The notes under the pieces: generated by a model | What the model saw: only the letters and a program-made list of their open reading frames with translations | The model's database searches: none | What the model was told of the DNA's origin: nothing | Position numbers and translations under genes: made by a program | Part shown: piece by piece, positions 7,838 through 14,944 of the stretch | Layout: the number at the start of each line of letters is the position of its first letter | Position numbering within the stretch: position 1 is the stretch's first letter | From: a bacterium | GTDB lineage: Bacteria > Hinthialibacterota > Hinthialibacteria > Hinthialibacterales > Hinthialibacteraceae | Assembly: GCA_963662285.2 (NCBI GenBank) | Contig: CAXXMV010000008.1 | Location: forward strand, 1,504,001 to 1,568,000 | DNA: 64,000 nt | Direction of reading: 5' to 3'

Positions 7838-10575
7838 TAATAAATCGACCAATCAACCACGCTAGTCGGACGTTCAATGAAATAGATTCTTTCAACGCCA
7901 GCGCCATTCCAGGGGAAAGTAGTATGATTGGAAGCGAACCATTGCAATGCTCCATCATCATAATCAATCGCCAGGATGCAGAATCCGATCATATCTCCCA
8001 CAGTCGGAGGGAAGACTTCGTTTGCGAAAGCGCCTGTCATGGAATCCCAGGGGATGCGAACTTCAATGGCGTAATTACCGTCATCTTCCAATTTCCCGGC
8101 ATATTCAACCTGATCGAATAAATCCTGCGCCAGCCATCCTCCAAATGCATTCTTATATAGAACATTGGAGTCGCCATCATCAATCGCCAGAGTCGGAATG
8201 AACATTTCATTGGTGTCTAAACTATCCGGCGATTCAGCAAATACAAACTGTAAAGCATCAGCGCCATTAGGATCAGGGCCTACAAATGAATTAATATCAT
8301 CCACTGCGCTTAGCGCCGCATAGAAGTTTTCATCATCCCACATAAAATAATAGGTTCCATTGAAATCATCTAACGGAGTTACTTGTTGCGCACTATCATT
8401 ATTAATACCGCCATGAACCAAATCAACGAAATATGGATCATTAACGCCATTCAAAGTATCAGAATTAATTACTATAGACTGGGCGCCGGCATATTCTTCA
8501 GCGGATACCTGCCCATCAATGGTTATGCTCTGACCAGCATCTAGACGAACCGCATTAACCGGCCACCCCAGTTCTTGTTCTTTGGCGTAAATAGTCACGA
8601 AAATATCATCCAGATAAATCGGTTGTCCGGCTGCTACGTTAGAGAAGAGTTCCAGGGAAATATACTCGCGTTCATGAGGTTCATTGTTGAGTATCAAAGT
8701 TTGTTCAAACTGAACCCATTGATCATTCTGATCTATGGCAATGTGGCCGGAGAGGTTTTCCTGCCCATCGACTTTCTCGTTCAGGCGAACCCACAAATCG
8801 GTAAGTTCCGTCCCACTTGGGACAAAGTACATTCCCTTTACTGTGACGCGGGCATTCTTGGGAATGGCAGTATTATAACCATCCAGTTTCTGCCAAATGG
8901 CATGGTATCCGCCGACGCCATTAATGCGCAGAGCGTTGTCGCCCGAATAAACAACATCGGATTGCACAATAAAGTCAGTAATAACGCCTTCGGTGTTACG
9001 AATTATCCAAGGTTCCAATCCGCTCTCGAAACTGTTATTTAGAATATGTTCATCCAGAAAGCGGATCCAATCAATTTCGACCAAAGCATCTTCTGCAACG
9101 GAATTGGGGAAATCAAACCTAATCCGGTTTATTTCGCCTTTCCAATCTTGCTTATCGACATCAATAAAAGCTGTAAACCATTCATTGTTTACCGGAACTG
9201 AATACACGCTTGAACCATGCCCGCCTACTGTCGGGAACCAGAACATTTCCGGCCCGGCCATACCAGCGCCAGTATTGATTCTCATGCGGATTGCCGCGCC
9301 GCCATACCGTGGAGCGGGGAAAGGACCATTCGGACCAAACAGGTATGGATCATCTAAACCAGCAGGATAAGTCAATGTCAACAGGCCATCCGCAACATTG
9401 ATATTCTCCACCAGATTGCCTTCATTCCAACCCTGATCATCGCCATCGGTATTGAATTCCCAATTGGCGTCGGGGAAAGTCTCCAACACAACGATATCTT
9501 CCGGTTCTTGAACATCGATGAATATATCATCGACATAGAAAACCTTACCGGCAGGATTTTTGGAATAGAGTTGCGCTTTGAGCGAGGTCCGTTCAGCAGG
9601 CTCCATATCTAAAACCAGCGTGCTAGAGAATTGCGCCCACTGATCGAATGTTGTTATTTCAATTGGAGCACTAGTCAGTTCAGCACCGCCATTCGATTCA
9701 CGAACGCGGAACCAGAACGTCGAGTCGGCGTCCCAACTATCCGCCGGAATATTATAAGCCCCGAACACGCTGACCAGAGAACCTTTTGCAATATCTACGC
9801 CATTAAGGATTTCCTGTTCCAAGGCATGATAATTTGAATCAGCTGTACCCAGACCAGTTATTTGCAAAGACGCATACTCAGAGAATGAAATATCTCCAGT
9901 GATTCTAAAATCATCTTCCGTCCCGGCGCCGATCTGTTCCCAGGGGCTGAAACCATCAAAATAATATTCTTCAAAATTATTATTCTCCACCCCGTAATCA
10001 ACCAGGCGGATCCAGTCAATTTCCACTTTGTAATCCAGGATAACATTATCGGCCAGGTCAAAGCGGTAATTATTGATCATCCCCTGCCAAGGCTGCTGCT
10101 CATTTCCTTCCAGCAAATTGACATATACAACGAACCATCCATTATCTTCCGGCCACCAATCAGCAATATTAGAGCCGTATGGTTTATTCCCATGTCCGGG
10201 TAAACCTTCTACCGGATCTGCAGGAAAATAATAAATATTCGGACCCGATCCAAAATCTTCGGGATAGACATCAACTCCTTCATCGACGAATGACCAGCGC
10301 ATTCTCATCTGTACGCCGGTCGCCCGGTCGCCGTCATAAGGACCGAATGGGCCATTTACATAAGGATCGCCTGTCCCGGCCAGCACGGTTGCAACCAGCG
10401 AACCGTCAATAACTTCTAATGAATTTATCCCGTTTCCAATACTCCAACCTTCGCGATTGCCATCAGTGTTAAATTCCGCCGCCGTTGTATACAGCGGCAT
10501 ACATAGCACTGCCATGACTCCAAATGTTAATAAAACCTGAAATACATGTCTTGTTCTTAAAATGTTTCGATTCAT
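7837..10575 (-). CDS. Large acidic secreted/surface protein with duplicated CBM-like modules and a C-terminal CBM9/DOMON-like sugar-binding domain
   Basis: Signal peptide; two copies of EFNTDG..GW..DPY..GP..VEIDWIR plus NNxFE..YxDDIF; TIDGQVSAEEY...WDDENFY...EVRIPW is CBM9-like; ends PTSVVDWSIY. Start taken at MNRNIL (SD agggag). Confidence 0.75.
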   Translation of the reverse strand: MNRNILRTRHVFQVLLTFGVMAVLCMPLYTTAAEFNTDGNREGWSIGNGINSLEVIDGSLVATVLAGTGDPYVNGPFGPYDGDRATGVQMRMRWSFVDEGVDVYPEDFGSGPNIYYFPADPVEGLPGHGNKPYGSNIADWWPEDNGWFVVYVNLLEGNEQQPWQGMINNYRFDLADNVILDYKVEIDWIRLVDYGVENNNFEEYYFDGFSPWEQIGAGTEDDFRITGDISFSEYASLQITGLGTADSNYHALEQEILNGVDIAKGSLVSVFGAYNIPADSWDADSTFWFRVRESNGGAELTSAPIEITTFDQWAQFSSTLVLDMEPAERTSLKAQLYSKNPAGKVFYVDDIFIDVQEPEDIVVLETFPDANWEFNTDGDDQGWNEGNLVENINVADGLLTLTYPAGLDDPYLFGPNGPFPAPRYGGAAIRMRINTGAGMAGPEMFWFPTVGGHGSSVYSVPVNNEWFTAFIDVDKQDWKGEINRIRFDFPNSVAEDALVEIDWIRFLDEHILNNSFESGLEPWIIRNTEGVITDFIVQSDVVYSGDNALRINGVGGYHAIWQKLDGYNTAIPKNARVTVKGMYFVPSGTELTDLWVRLNEKVDGQENLSGHIAIDQNDQWVQFEQTLILNNEPHEREYISLELFSNVAAGQPIYLDDIFVTIYAKEQELGWPVNAVRLDAGQSITIDGQVSAEEYAGAQSIVINSDTLNGVNDPYFVDLVHGGINNDSAQQVTPLDDFNGTYYFMWDDENFYAALSAVDDINSFVGPDPNGADALQFVFAESPDSLDTNEMFIPTLAIDDGDSNVLYKNAFGGWLAQDLFDQVEYAGKLEDDGNYAIEVRIPWDSMTGAFANEVFPPTVGDMIGFCILAIDYDDGALQWFASNHTTFPWNGAGVERIYFIERPTSVVDWSIY

Positions 10576-10841
10576 TTCTTTTCTCCCTAATAAATTTTTC
10601 ATCAATGCATTTCAGCAATGCATTGATAATCACTATAAATCCATCATCAATACTAACATTTCATATTATTATGTTTCAAGACTGGTCACAAAAAAATCAC
10701 ACAAATACCGAAAATTTCCATAACAATGACTGATTATGGTTAATTTTGGCAAGAATAATATGATTAACGAGAATTTCTCTATCTTCACCGGTCTTTATCC
10801 CATGTAAATTGGTGGAAAATAGCCATTGAGCATTTTTTTTC

Positions 10842-10870
10842 TTGACAACTCAATTGATTTTTAATAAATT
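10842..10870 (+). promoter_or_regulatory. Sigma70-type promoter
   Basis: TTGACA (10842-47), 17-nt spacer, TAAATT (10865-70). Confidence 0.65.
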
Positions 10871-10901
10871 AGATTTAGCGCTGAAAGGAGGTGGTCCATC
10901 T

Positions 10902-10964
10902 ATGCATTATGACTGTACGGGTAGTACATGTAGCGCAGGTGGCTGCGGAGGTGAGGAGAGCTAA
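10902..10964 (+). CDS. Unannotated 20-aa Cys/Gly-rich small ORF MHYDCTGSTCSAGGCGGEES
   Basis: ATG preceded by GAAAGGAGGTGGTCCA, downstream of a promoter, in a + strand unit that has its own terminator. Confidence 0.5.
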   Translation: MHYDCTGSTCSAGGCGGEES

Positions 10965-11214
10965 CTTTCCCATTGCGCCTCTGTTATTAAACGGAACTTT
11001 CTTCGCATTAAAAGGAATTTAACTAAAGACGCTTCGCGTCATGATCCTGTGCGCTATTCCTCAACGCGATGATCTTTTCAAATAACAGGGATTATCGGTA
11101 ACGGATTTATTGTCAGTCGAGCGCCAAGGCGATAACGGATTGTATGATATTTAATTACAGACGTTATCCACCGGAACATGCTCTCCTGGCTTTCCAATCC
11201 AAGCAGTTTACCGC

Positions 11215-11250
11215 AACGGGGGCGATCAATTCAGATCGCCCCCGTTTTTA
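11215..11250 (+). terminator. Rho-independent terminator (+ strand)
   Basis: AACGGGGGCGATC-aattca-GATCGCCCCCGTT 13-bp stem followed by TTT. The U-tract is on the + strand only. Confidence 0.85.
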
Positions 11251-11262
11251 ATTTATTGCCAT

Positions 11263-11340
11263 GTAGGCTGGGTCGCGCTTTTCCGACACACCGATAATAA
11301 TTAATCGATTCGGTGGGTCATAAAAAGCGACCCACCCTAC
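11263..11340. repeat. Inverted REP pair (REPIN-like, family A variant)
   Basis: GTAGGCTGGGTCGCGCTTTTCCGACACACC ... GGTGGGTCATAAAAAGCGACCCACCCTAC. Confidence 0.75.
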
Positions 11341-11350
11341 GGTACTTAGA

Positions 11351-14300
11351 TTATTTATCTTCTTCGAGAATCCCCATGCCGCTGCGATCCGGATATTTCG
11401 GGCGTCGTGCCGGAATATATGGATTGCTGTTAATCTCTTCAATCATCAGATCGATAGCTGCATCCAACTGAGGATCGCCGCCGTTAATCATCTTCGAGGG
11501 ATTATCAACTATTTCAATATCAGGATCAACGCCATGCCCTTCGATGCCCCAGGTGCCGTCAACGTCAAAGTAGGCGAAATTGGGAACAGAAACACGCCCT
11601 CCATCAACCAAAGGAGGCATTCCAGAGATGCCGACTAAGCCGCCCCAGGTGCGCATACCCACCAATTTACCCAATTCGGCCTGACGGAACAAAGCGGGGA
11701 ACATATCGCCGCCCGATCCAGCCAAACCATTAATCAACATGCATTTAGGACCATGATGGGCGCTGGTCGGCCAGGGGATGCTATCTCCATCACGCAACGC
11801 CCAATAGTTTGTGATAGGTCTTTTTAACAATTCGATAAAACGGCTTGGCGCCTGTCCGCCGCCATTCCACCGCTCGTCGATAATCAAAGCCTCTTTGGTC
11901 ATCTGTCCATAGAACTGCCGGAACAGATTATTCTGGCCATCGACGCCGGTATTAGGCACGTAAATATAACCGACTTTGCCGCCTGATTTCTTATCTACAT
12001 AAGCGCGGTTCTTTTCGATCCACGCCCGGTAGCGCAGATTGCCATCATTAGAAAGCAATTTGATGACTACATCACGCGAATCATCATTCTTCACAGGTTC
12101 ATCACCAACGGTCAACACAACAGTCTTGTCAGCCAATCCGATAAAGGCCGCCCAGGGATCAAGATTGGCATCAATCGGAACGCCATTGACAGCCAGAATA
12201 TAATCGCCTTCATCGACCTTATCTTTGGCAACATGGTTGAAAGGACTGCGCGCATCGACATCCCATACCGCGCCTTCATAAATCTTCGAGATACAATATG
12301 CGCCTTCTTTCAACTCCAGATCAACGCCTAACATGCCAACCGATTCGCTGGGCTGACCTTCAACATCACCGCCGCCATAGTAGGCATGTCCGACATTCAA
12401 TTCAGAGATCATCTCTTTAATGACAAAACTGAGGTCTTCTCTGGTGGCGCAATCATCCAGCATGCCTTCGTAATGCTTCCGGACCGCTTCCCAATCCACG
12501 CCGTGCATGTTCGGGTCATAGAAGAAATCGCGGTACCTGCGCCAAGCGTCGGTAAATATTTCACGCCATTCTTCCCGTGGATTAATCATAGTACGCAGTC
12601 CAGCTGCACTGATGGCGTCTTCCAGTTTCTGATCAGGCTCAGCCTTGATAACATGAAAACTGGAACCTTTTCTGACCAGCATCTTCTTGCCGTCAGCGGT
12701 CATGTCATAACCACCCATATCATCCAAAACCGTTTTTTCTTCCTTCTTCTCATCAGAAAGATCAAACAGTTTAATAGAAGTCTTGCCGCCGCTGTTGCGC
12801 AATCCGCTGCGGCAATAAATCAATTTATCTTCATGGTTAACTGATAAAGCGTAGAAATTCCCATGCTTGACCGACAATTGAAACGCCCTGCGCTCAAAGC
12901 CTTCTATATCGATCTCCAGAGGCTTTTCGTCTTCTTTTTTCTTATTATCTTTTTTGTCTTTAACAGCCTCTTTATCAGCATCCTTGTCGCCGTCTTTATC
13001 CTTCTGGTCTTTGGCGTCTTTATCATCTACATCATCATCTTTTTTCTTTTTATCTTTGGCTTTTTTATCACCATCATCTTTACTACCATCTTTGTCATCA
13101 TCAGAGTCGTCATCTGAATCCTTGTCTTTATCTTCTTCGTCCTTACCCTCTTTATCCTTATCCTTCTCATCTTCCCATGATTCTTCATCACTCTCAAACA
13201 GATAAGGGTCTTTTACATCTGCGCGGAGAGGAACCGCATAGAGCAAATCGGTATCGCTATATACGAACGATTTACCCAATCCCCAACCGGCGTCTTCATA
13301 AATCGGACTATCAAAATTGCGGTTGCTGGCGAAAAACAGAAAGTCGCCCTTACGGTCAAAAGTGGGCGCCGTATCGTTGAACATATCGCTGGTAACCTGA
13401 TAAGACTCTTCCTTCTTCAGGTTATACAGAAAAATTGAGTTGAGCTGGTTCCGGGCGCCTTTTACATAAGCAATCCAAGCGGAATCATGCGACCAGTTAA
13501 TACCGGGATTGCTTCCCCAGCGGTCTTTATCAACAAAAAGGGATTCTTTATTATCAATATTATGTATATAGATCGATCCACTGTTATCGGTGAAAGCAAT
13601 ATTCTTCGAGTCAGGCGACCAAGTTGGATTGTAGCGGTATTTCTTACCGCCCGATGTCAGCTGCTGAGTCTCTTCCTTGCCATCGGATTGCATGATGTAA
13701 AGTTCATACTCTCCTGATTCATCAGAAAAATAGGCGATCCAGCGGCCATCAGGGCTCCAACTGGGGTAGCGTTCCGCCGCTCCGCTGCTGCGCGTCAGGT
13801 TGCGCACAGCGCCTTTTTTCTCCGGCAGCGTCCAGATGTCGCCGCGCGCTGCAATCACAACGCGCTTACCGGTTGATGATACGCCCCAACCACGAAGATG
13901 CCCGCTTACATCGGTTCGCTTGGAACGGATTTCAGGACGGGCGCCGGGAATCATAACAATGATGGATTTTGATTGTCCGGTGGATAGATTCAACAAATAT
14001 AGGTTTGATCCATTCTGAAAAACAATCTCCCCTTCACCATTGGCGCCGGGGCCAATCGATGGAAACTTACAGTCAAAATCTTTGAAAGTAGTAACCTGCT
14101 CGCGTTTTTCGGTGGTTGTATTATAAGACCAGATATTCAAACGATGATTCGGCCCGGCATCGCTAAGATAATAAACCACGTTGCCATACCACATGGGATA
14201 AGTGTCTGTTCCTTCAAAATCAGTTATCTTCTTGGATTTATAATCTTTGAGGTTGAACAGCCAGATATCAGTCGCCATGCCTCCACGATACCTTTTCCAG

Positions 14301-14944
14301 GTGCGGAAGTCTCTGCTATGCGGCGTATAAGCCAGCCACTCGCCATCGCCGTTGATAGCGCCATTGGCGCCGTAAGGCACGGGTAACTTATGCGGCATGC
14401 CGCATTCGGGCGACACAGTAAACAATTGGCTCTGACGCCCCAATCCAGCTAATCCACTGGCGTAAAAAAGCAGTTCGTTCTGAGGAGTCCAATCACAAAG
14501 CATTTCATTGGCGGGGTGATGAGTCACCCGAAAGGGAATTCCTCCCTCTACGGCAATAATATAGATATCTCTATCGCCATCATAATTCCCAACAAAAGCA
14601 ATTGATTTCCCATCTGGACTAAACCGGGGAAACATCTCCTCTCCGGCGGGGCTGGCTAAAGGAGTCGCCATACCGCCCTGGCGGGAAACCAACCATAAAT
14701 CATTAGCGTAAACAAATACAATGCTCGATGCGCTGACATCAGCGTAACGCAGCATCCCCGCATGGGGGCGCACCGCCGCTTCCACCGGTTCAGCATCGCC
14801 AGTTTTACTAGCCAACGCTATCATCTGTGTCCGTGCGTCATCGCTTTGCTGATCCAATGGCGCCAATGATATAAGTTCGCCTGTATTTCCTGTTGATACA
14901 ACAAGACATAACAACCCAACTACTAAATAAAAGTATTTCATCAC
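11351..14944 (-). CDS. Tricorn protease homologue (S41, beta-propellers, PDZ)
   Basis: WKRYRGGMA, PD40 repeats, LNVGHAY, DERWNGGG, GSGGDMFP and RTWGGLVG motifs. Confidence 0.95.
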   Translation of the reverse strand: MMKYFYLVVGLLCLVVSTGNTGELISLAPLDQQSDDARTQMIALASKTGDAEPVEAAVRPHAGMLRYADVSASSIVFVYANDLWLVSRQGGMATPLASPAGEEMFPRFSPDGKSIAFVGNYDGDRDIYIIAVEGGIPFRVTHHPANEMLCDWTPQNELLFYASGLAGLGRQSQLFTVSPECGMPHKLPVPYGANGAINGDGEWLAYTPHSRDFRTWKRYRGGMATDIWLFNLKDYKSKKITDFEGTDTYPMWYGNVVYYLSDAGPNHRLNIWSYNTTTEKREQVTTFKDFDCKFPSIGPGANGEGEIVFQNGSNLYLLNLSTGQSKSIIVMIPGARPEIRSKRTDVSGHLRGWGVSSTGKRVVIAARGDIWTLPEKKGAVRNLTRSSGAAERYPSWSPDGRWIAYFSDESGEYELYIMQSDGKEETQQLTSGGKKYRYNPTWSPDSKNIAFTDNSGSIYIHNIDNKESLFVDKDRWGSNPGINWSHDSAWIAYVKGARNQLNSIFLYNLKKEESYQVTSDMFNDTAPTFDRKGDFLFFASNRNFDSPIYEDAGWGLGKSFVYSDTDLLYAVPLRADVKDPYLFESDEESWEDEKDKDKEGKDEEDKDKDSDDDSDDDKDGSKDDGDKKAKDKKKKDDDVDDKDAKDQKDKDGDKDADKEAVKDKKDNKKKEDEKPLEIDIEGFERRAFQLSVKHGNFYALSVNHEDKLIYCRSGLRNSGGKTSIKLFDLSDEKKEEKTVLDDMGGYDMTADGKKMLVRKGSSFHVIKAEPDQKLEDAISAAGLRTMINPREEWREIFTDAWRRYRDFFYDPNMHGVDWEAVRKHYEGMLDDCATREDLSFVIKEMISELNVGHAYYGGGDVEGQPSESVGMLGVDLELKEGAYCISKIYEGAVWDVDARSPFNHVAKDKVDEGDYILAVNGVPIDANLDPWAAFIGLADKTVVLTVGDEPVKNDDSRDVVIKLLSNDGNLRYRAWIEKNRAYVDKKSGGKVGYIYVPNTGVDGQNNLFRQFYGQMTKEALIIDERWNGGGQAPSRFIELLKRPITNYWALRDGDSIPWPTSAHHGPKCMLINGLAGSGGDMFPALFRQAELGKLVGMRTWGGLVGISGMPPLVDGGRVSVPNFAYFDVDGTWGIEGHGVDPDIEIVDNPSKMINGGDPQLDAAIDLMIEEINSNPYIPARRPKYPDRSGMGILEEDK

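Follow-up and report, generated by a model that had tools for sequence, protein, structure and literature searches.

In a 64,000-nucleotide (nt) stretch of the genome of an uncultivated bacterium of the phylum Hinthialibacterota (GenBank assembly GCA_963662285.2, contig CAXXMV010000008.1, positions 1,504,001 to 1,568,000 of the forward strand; here called the window), the gap between two minus-strand genes contains a complete plus-strand transcription unit at positions 10842-11251, which includes an open reading frame (ORF) of 20 codons. Comparison with related genomes indicates that this unit is a real, single-copy, phylum-restricted gene outside any catalogued family, and that its mini-ORF is almost certainly translated. 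At the same time, the nucleotides of the ORF appear to form strands of conserved, in part long-range, helices. The explanation favoured here, which we regard as probable if by no means assured, is that of a stable RNA of ~375 nt that is mRNA and structured RNA at once, a translation-coupled device of the kind represented by the dual-function small regulatory RNAs (sRNAs). Selection would then act on the peptide sequence less than on the RNA architecture together with the process of translation through it.

An original prediction, made from the letters of the window, had placed in this gap a TTGACA-N17-TAAATT promoter, a very strong Shine-Dalgarno sequence (SD), the ORF 10902-10964 with its 20-residue peptide and a 13-bp terminator with a U-tract fitting only plus-strand transcription, and each of these was recovered. 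The sigma-70-type promoter (10842-10870, plus strand) consists of TTGACA (10842-10847), a 17-nt spacer and TAAATT (10865-10870); 10 of 12 positions match in the consensus scan, and the site ranks first of the six promoter-like sites in 10400-11500, where shuffles lead one to expect 3.3 +/- 1.5. From promoter geometry, transcription is predicted to start at 10877-10878, 7-8 nt past the -10 box and at the first base or bases of helix P1 (see below), so the 5' end of the RNA probably lies within this helix. The extended SD (10883-10897, GAAAGGAGGTGGTCC) is complementary over 15 contiguous nt, including one G-U pair, to the 3' end of the genome's own 16S rRNA (GGATCACCTCCTTTCT). Of the 7,485 GGAGG sites of the 7.29-Mb genome, it has the longest anti-SD run once the antisense of the 16S gene is set aside. 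Its GGAGG lies 10 nt ahead of the AUG. The intrinsic terminator (11215-11251) was likewise found by consensus scan and combines a 13-bp stem with 9 G-C pairs (11215-11246), a 6-nt loop and a T-run that is present on the plus strand only.

The structured tail of about 250 nt that had also been proposed stands in part: the distance between ORF and terminator is ~250 nt, and the complete RNA has a folding energy of -125.4 kcal/mol (z = -3.97 versus shuffles). Most of the tail (10965-11179), however, is an unconserved variable apical domain, which is unalignable between genera and measures 64-337 nt in the homologues; this insert is closed by a conserved long-range helix.

Promoter, SD, ORF, 3' block and terminator recur jointly in related genomes, far beyond chance. 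The homologues possess a -35 box of TTGAC type and a -10 box that reads TAnnnT or CATATT, at the same distance from the SD as in the window, and wherever the regular expression located both boxes, GGAGG follows the -10 box at a distance of 15-18 nt. The SD core GAAAGGAGGTGGTC is invariant in the three alignments A1, A3 and A4 but for a single G in L037. At the other end, in every homologue that was folded, the place of the window's terminator is taken by a stem of -18 to -33 kcal/mol with a T-run behind it.

The unit is single-copy in its own genome. By BLAST, 24 of 41 related genomes contain two conserved blocks, one covering exactly the SD plus the ORF and the other ~70 nt ending in the terminator. 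A covariance model (R1) was built from alignment A3 for the 5' domain only, and the long-range helix played no part in the searches. R1 matches 32 of the 35 species genomes that represent the phylum in the collection (the phylum is uncultivated and known from metagenome-assembled genomes (MAGs) only) at E<=4e-6. Outside the phylum it matches one of 116 genomes; the match (L098) turned out to be an unremarkable gene that has a strong SD, and the true occurrence is 0/116. A pattern scan over one genome per species yielded 22 loci, 19 of them in MAGs (named 'bacterium' or 'Candidatus Omnitrophota bacterium'), with L054, L061 and L069 rejected as chance matches in coding DNA of unrelated bacteria. 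A metagenome scan provided 11 further loci. L094, L096 and L097 were set aside after inspection as chance matches.

That the unit belongs to an undescribed family, as originally suggested, agrees with the searches. Rfam 15 has no match at gathering score in the whole window; at E<=10, the region 10600-11360 gives eight weak matches, all on the minus strand and far below gathering score, and none on the plus strand. ARAGORN reports nothing in the window. A divergent housekeeping RNA was considered and rejected: the genome carries RNase P RNA, transfer-messenger RNA (tmRNA), 6S RNA and signal recognition particle (SRP) RNA at other sites, each scoring above its cut-off. At the protein level, all eight peptides looked up exactly are absent from a collection of 15 billion proteins, none of 16 peptides matched NCBIfam, and the only Pfam match is RepA1_leader at E = 0.14. 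A full-text literature query with four peptide motifs, restricted to peptide strings, returned unrelated papers only.

Evidence for translation comes from the way the ORF (ATG at 10902, TAA at 10962-10964) has been kept. It is intact and in frame in 30 of the 31 distinct order-level sequences, the exception being L046, and in seven of seven from two further families. Among the 30 intact order-level sequences, the AUG lies 5-6 nt past GGAGGTGGTC and the stop exactly 24 nt past GGTGRCTG. Relative to the GGAGG motifs, the AUG is found 10-11 nt past the first (10 in the window) and the stop 10-11 nt past a second, internal one; TAA, TAG and TGA are all used as stop at this one fixed site. Internal stops were counted in 33 distinct ORFs (the order-level set minus L046 plus the seven sequences from the two further families): in frame 0 no ORF has one, whereas 27 do in frame +1 and 32 in frame +2. 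The ORFs form 12 length classes between 54 and 93 nt, all multiples of three, and the lengths of the noncoding variable domain, taken as a control, spread over all three residue classes. In codons 3-4, most variation falls on the third position and the residue stays Asp, Glu or Gly. Because start, frame and stop are kept, across indels and substitutions, in essentially all versions, ribosomes almost certainly read the mini-ORF.

A purely noncoding structured RNA with an accidental ORF would fit the strong nucleotide-level conservation and covariation described below, as well as the fact that parts of the peptide sequence are dictated by pairing. The length classes, all multiples of three, the absence of in-frame stops, the three different stop codons at one fixed site, the distance of 10-11 nt from GGAGG to AUG and a frame-restoring indel pair in one family are all at odds with it, and we consider it highly improbable.

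The pairing of the RNA was tested on alignment A1 (26 sequences). Over all helices, 92.5% of cells are paired versus 40-51% with slid partners, and none of 500 shuffles equals the covariation score; the tested structure was derived from these same sequences, and such a structure tends to beat its slid versions. Helix P1 joins a GCGC at the 5' end (10878-10881) to a GCGC within the Ser-Ala codons (10933-10936): three of its four pairs changed on both sides (GCGC/GCGC, ACGC/GCGU, GAGC/GCUC and ACCC/GGGU occur), and 99% of cells are paired. The 5' strand of P4, GGTGGCTG, spans the Gly-Gly-Cys codons (10938-10945); its 3' strand (11204-11212) reads CAG, a bulged T and TTACC. P3 follows with a 5' strand (10947-10961) that contains a second, SD-like GGAGGTG and ends at the stop codon, and a pyrimidine-rich 3' strand of CTCTCC or CTTTCC type (11180-11195); G10953, G11188 and T11192 are unpaired. 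Four of the 14 pairs of P3 changed on both sides, and 88.7% of cells are paired. Its two strands are separated by the variable insert, and its 3' strand is followed by a conserved 8-nt internal loop of AATCCAAG type (11196-11203), visible as conserved alignment columns. In an independent swap test, which supports P3a, cognate strands reach a mean of -11.7 kcal/mol versus -8.7 for non-cognate ones, and none of 10,000 permutations was as good. A second family keeps a duplex of -27 to -36 kcal/mol that is built from different sequence. In alignment A4, MAFFT shifted this family one column out of register in the helix, and the pair counts exclude A4.

Comparison of these sequences shows a predicted architecture of two parts. 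The loop of P1 would present the SD, with its exceptional length, together with the AUG and a few codons that vary. The remainder of the ORF would form the 5' strand of a long-range helix of ~22 bp (P4 plus P3), in which the 3' half of the ORF finds its partner in the conserved pyrimidine-rich block just ahead of the terminator, and the stop codon always comes to lie at the apex.

Two observations on this layout may be added. In the window, AUG and stop each lie exactly 10 nt past a GGAGG (10887-10904 and 10947-10964), with a GCGC-(A/T)G box ahead of each GGAGG, the two GCGC boxes pairing mutually as P1; these paired GCGC/GGAGG blocks resemble a ribosome-binding region that has been duplicated internally. 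In the most distant family (L093, genome G028), the apex of P3 lacks the variable domain; P3 forms a local hairpin whose 4-nt loop contains the stop codon, and the partner block of P4 is situated ~100 nt downstream; L093 represents a minimal form of the architecture.

Several results say that the nucleotides lead over the peptide sequence, although the peptide may have a role as well. Covariation in P1 alters the encoded residues (Ser-Ala, Ser-Val, Arg-Val, Ser-Ser), and in the paired part of the ORF the third codon position varies no more than the first and second. In the second family, a single unpaired C between P4 and P3 is lost and P3a is one nt longer; this indel pair retains helix, ORF length and stop position and shifts the frame over the GGAGGTG motif. 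The peptide tail accordingly reads ..G-G-W-E-x4 in this family in place of ..G-[GD]-C-G-G-x3, the central Cys being lost, and one of its peptides has no Cys at all. Counts by eye on the 31 distinct peptides give between 0 and 5 Cys, with a single one in several peptides, and a net charge that is clearly acidic in the family of the window and neutral or basic in the second family. The conserved, C-terminal part of the peptide is dictated by RNA pairing.

A plain small-protein gene, in which the peptide of 16-30 residues is the sole functional product and helices, SD and terminator only stabilise the mRNA or tune its translation, is possible, though we judge it unlikely. It accommodates the conserved frame, start and stop, the N-terminal residues that are conserved as amino acids with third-position variation, and a promoter and SD that suit high output; the hbs and icaR mRNAs, as far as the cited accounts describe them, offer published precedents (PMC5737220, PMC3868564). 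What it accommodates poorly is that tail, Cys content and net charge differ between families while the nucleotides stay, that the internal loop and both helix strands are conserved beyond the need for pairing, and that the variable insert is retained in every version.

Metal binding had originally been proposed for the peptide, which has Cys residues at positions 5, 10 and 15. This C-x4-C-x4-C spacing exists in the peptide of the window and in no other of the 31 distinct peptides, the Cys count varies as stated and the central Cys is replaced in one family; as a motif it thus falls away, and with it a metal-binding micro-protein based on it becomes exceedingly improbable.

The proposal of a precursor of a ribosomally synthesised and post-translationally modified peptide (RiPP) fares little better and appears very improbable. 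Such a precursor would have a variable core rich in Cys, Ser and Thr and a conserved C-terminal follower, and would be modified by enzymes encoded elsewhere. The composition (Gly 21%, Ser 16.5%, Cys 10.8%) and the succession of a variable N-terminal and middle part and a conserved C-terminal part would suit such a precursor. Against this, no maturase-type Pfam family lies within about 1.5 kb of the unit in 12 loci (unlinked maturases were not searched for), and the neighbours are mutually unrelated. The family searches described above gave nothing beyond the RepA1_leader match at E = 0.14; the gene exists as one copy, is found almost throughout the phylum and has a promoter of housekeeping type; and the supposed follower tracks RNA covariation and is frame-shifted in one family.

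The neighbour genes differ across these 12 loci and are mostly convergent with the unit; they include genes for pilus, BlaR/BlaI, PhoD-like, M23 peptidase, TPR, symporter, UbiA, methyltransferase (three loci), RuBisCO-like, fumarase, bactofilin, HepT, rhamnosidase, amine oxidase and CrtC proteins. This variety also bears on a leader-peptide attenuator that would govern terminator read-through into a downstream gene. Mini-ORF, alternative pairings and terminator are all present as such a device would need; the downstream gene, however, is on the opposite strand in the window and in most other loci, and where it is co-oriented it varies by locus (PhoD-like, RuBisCO-like, amine oxidase). The attenuator therefore deserves next to no credence. 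Hardly more credible is an RNA that sequesters CsrA/RsmA in the manner of CsrB/RsmZ. The genome does encode CsrA, as it does Hfq, and three GGA-bearing SD-like motifs are located in conserved parts of the unit, but these conserved motifs sit in helices, the GGA content of the variable domain is that expected (64 observed versus 63.1 expected in 21 sequences, few of them in predicted loops) and Rfam shows no match.

The favoured combination of mRNA and structured RNA comes closest to the dual-function sRNA among the options originally named. An independent transcript with its own promoter and terminator is found at the sequence level, the ORF appears translated and there is constraint at the RNA level; an activity in trans is what we infer. 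The mechanism could be as follows: A ribosome running from AUG to stop must open P1, P4 and P3. For a short time, the opening would expose the anti-SD-like 3' block, rich in pyrimidines, along with the conserved 8-nt loop; once freed, these parts might target other RNAs, ribosomes or a protein, or have no effect at all. Helices, 5'-terminal stem, SD-bound ribosome and terminator would together give a long-lived RNA, which, by analogy with the hbs and icaR mRNAs, may be built for stability and heavy ribosome loading. The Gly/Ser/Cys-rich peptide of 16-30 residues may also act on its own.

A bolder version, put forward tentatively and in our view rather unlikely, regards the unit as a phylum-wide housekeeping 'translation-gated' riboregulator that reads out the translational capacity of the cell, the peptide being largely a by-product. 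In that version, 30S subunits would be recruited through the longest anti-SD complement in the genome, and each ribosome reaching the stop would unzip the long helix and release the pyrimidine block and the 8-nt loop, which would then act on the SDs of other mRNAs, on ribosomal subunits or on a protein.

A number of observations weigh against the combination of translated ORF and conserved fold that we favour. The ORF of L046, a metagenome contig, is broken by a 1-nt insertion in a sequence otherwise near-identical to intact copies. The N-terminal pattern M-x-[DE]-[DG]-[CS] is conserved at the amino-acid level, and the peptide itself may matter more than assumed here. Three phylum genomes are without a convincing match: G015 (86% complete), G026 and G034 (68% complete); a weak match in G026 was dismissed as a chance match. 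Regarding the fold, the changes in P4 (10938-10945 / 11204-11212; 95.7% of cells paired) are one-sided only, and four of 29 sequences (L026, L027, L029 and L072) have poor cognate P3a energies with fixed windows, for which free duplex folding gives -29 to -33 kcal/mol. In two sister families (L026-L031), the P4 3' strand GATCACC could pair with the SD flank GGTGGTC instead. Given the one-sided changes in P4 and this alternative pairing, part of the fold is tentative. A small hairpin in the N-terminal codons (P2) is weak or absent in several sequences and was dropped from the model as inconsistent between sequences. Finally, translation is deduced from comparison, the transcript start from promoter geometry and the action in trans by inference.

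In L026-L031, the GATCACC block repeats letters of the 16S 3' end, and minimum-free-energy folds choose the pairing with the SD flank; in these models, the alternative pairing could be a translational on/off switch.

As to expression, 21 of the 24 sequencing runs listed for this stretch are recorded as RNA, and the predicted transcript fully contains metatranscriptome contigs of three studies (334 nt, 10887-11221; 249 nt, 10934-11181; 164 nt, 10889-11026). Other contigs are attributed to relatives because they match the conserved part of the ORF only. The confinement of the contigs to the predicted transcript is a weak hint that the unit is expressed, given that contigs show neither ends nor strand and that RNA libraries can contain DNA. 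The flanking genes have no contig cover in four runs, which is not evidence of silence.

These flanking genes, both on the minus strand, encode a 922-residue protein with a CBM9 domain and a 1197-residue tricorn-type protease. The protease (11351-14944) carries PD40, Tricorn_C1, PDZ_Tricorn and Peptidase_S41 domains and, in mid-protein, a low-complexity insert of roughly 100 residues rich in Asp, Lys and Glu. Between the terminator of the unit and the stop of the protease gene (gene end 11351) lies a second long inverted repeat (11266-11337), which surfaced only as a sub-threshold match to an Rfam microRNA family (E = 0.85) and is probably the protease gene's own terminator. Among the 11 related loci, a class I S-adenosylmethionine (SAM) methyltransferase gene is found just upstream in three (L007, L010 and L011), the only neighbour family with three occurrences, and a BlaR1-type peptidase M56 recurs in two (L003 and L008); the methyltransferase recurrence is probably residual synteny. 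In one genus (L009, L048 and L075), a tRNA gene is positioned on the opposite strand ~100 nt past the unit's terminator.

The unit adds an uncatalogued, well-supported RNA gene to a phylum represented by MAGs only. A core function is suggested by its near-universal presence in this phylum and by a ribosome-binding signal stronger than any other in the genome. It offers a clean case of overlapping constraints: ~30 nt serve as codons, as a strand of a covarying long-range helix and as an SD-like motif, and in one lineage a 1-nt deletion is offset by a compensating insertion that saves helix, frame and stop, but not the peptide. This makes it a good test object for selection on a peptide versus selection on the act of translation. 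It is also a caution against annotating small ORFs from a peptide motif alone; gene callers, for their part, miss the ORF of the unit.

An ORF that serves as a helix strand, a stop at the helix apex and a frame-restoring indel pair were not found described in a limited literature search. In its workings the unit resembles a dual-function sRNA or a small mRNA that pairs with itself, and individual traits have counterparts in several known systems. In leader-peptide attenuators of the trpL type, translation of a mini-ORF must remodel RNA pairing, and in the fold-back inhibition element of hok mRNA the 5' part pairs with the extreme 3' part; the unit resembles them in these two respects. Unlike the attenuators, it has no conserved downstream gene, and unlike hok, its peptide is not toxin-like and no antisense partner was seen.

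In the known dual-function sRNAs, the coding and the base-pairing parts are generally described as largely separate. SR1/SR1P, SgrS/SgrT, RNAIII/hld and Spot 42/SpfP share with the unit, as far as the cited sources cover them, the form of a small independent structured transcript with its own promoter and terminator and a translated ORF of <50 codons (PMC12310071, PMC12612679, PMC8916003, PMC5013986). The unit differs from them in having no sequence or Rfam relationship to any of them, and in that its ORF itself supplies one strand of the conserved helices and stops at a helix apex.

The STAB-SD element (Agaisse & Lereclus 1996) reportedly consists of a very strong SD near the 5' end, at which a bound ribosome protects the RNA. 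In the Bacillus subtilis hbs mRNA, a strong SD-bound ribosome and a 14-bp interaction that joins the 5' and the 3' untranslated regions (UTRs) stabilise the message, and the protection described there is against RNase J1 (PMC5737220). The very strong SD near the 5' end and the long-range 5'/3' interaction recur in the unit; hbs, however, encodes a normal protein, and its long-range pairing resides in the UTRs, not in the coding region. Since the genome here has RNase Y and no detectable RNase J (best match 22.9 bits versus a cut-off of 400, in an assembly that is 92.5% complete), the hbs model does not have to hold in its RNase J1-specific part. The Staphylococcus aureus icaR mRNA is reported to carry an anti-SD motif in the 3'-UTR that pairs with the SD, and the resulting long duplex is a substrate of RNase III (PMC3868564). 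In both RNAs, a pyrimidine-rich anti-SD-like 3' motif pairs with an SD-type sequence of the same molecule. In icaR, by the same account, it is the true SD that is masked and translation is blocked, whereas in the unit the predicted partner is the second, ORF-internal SD-like sequence, and the true SD remains in the loop.

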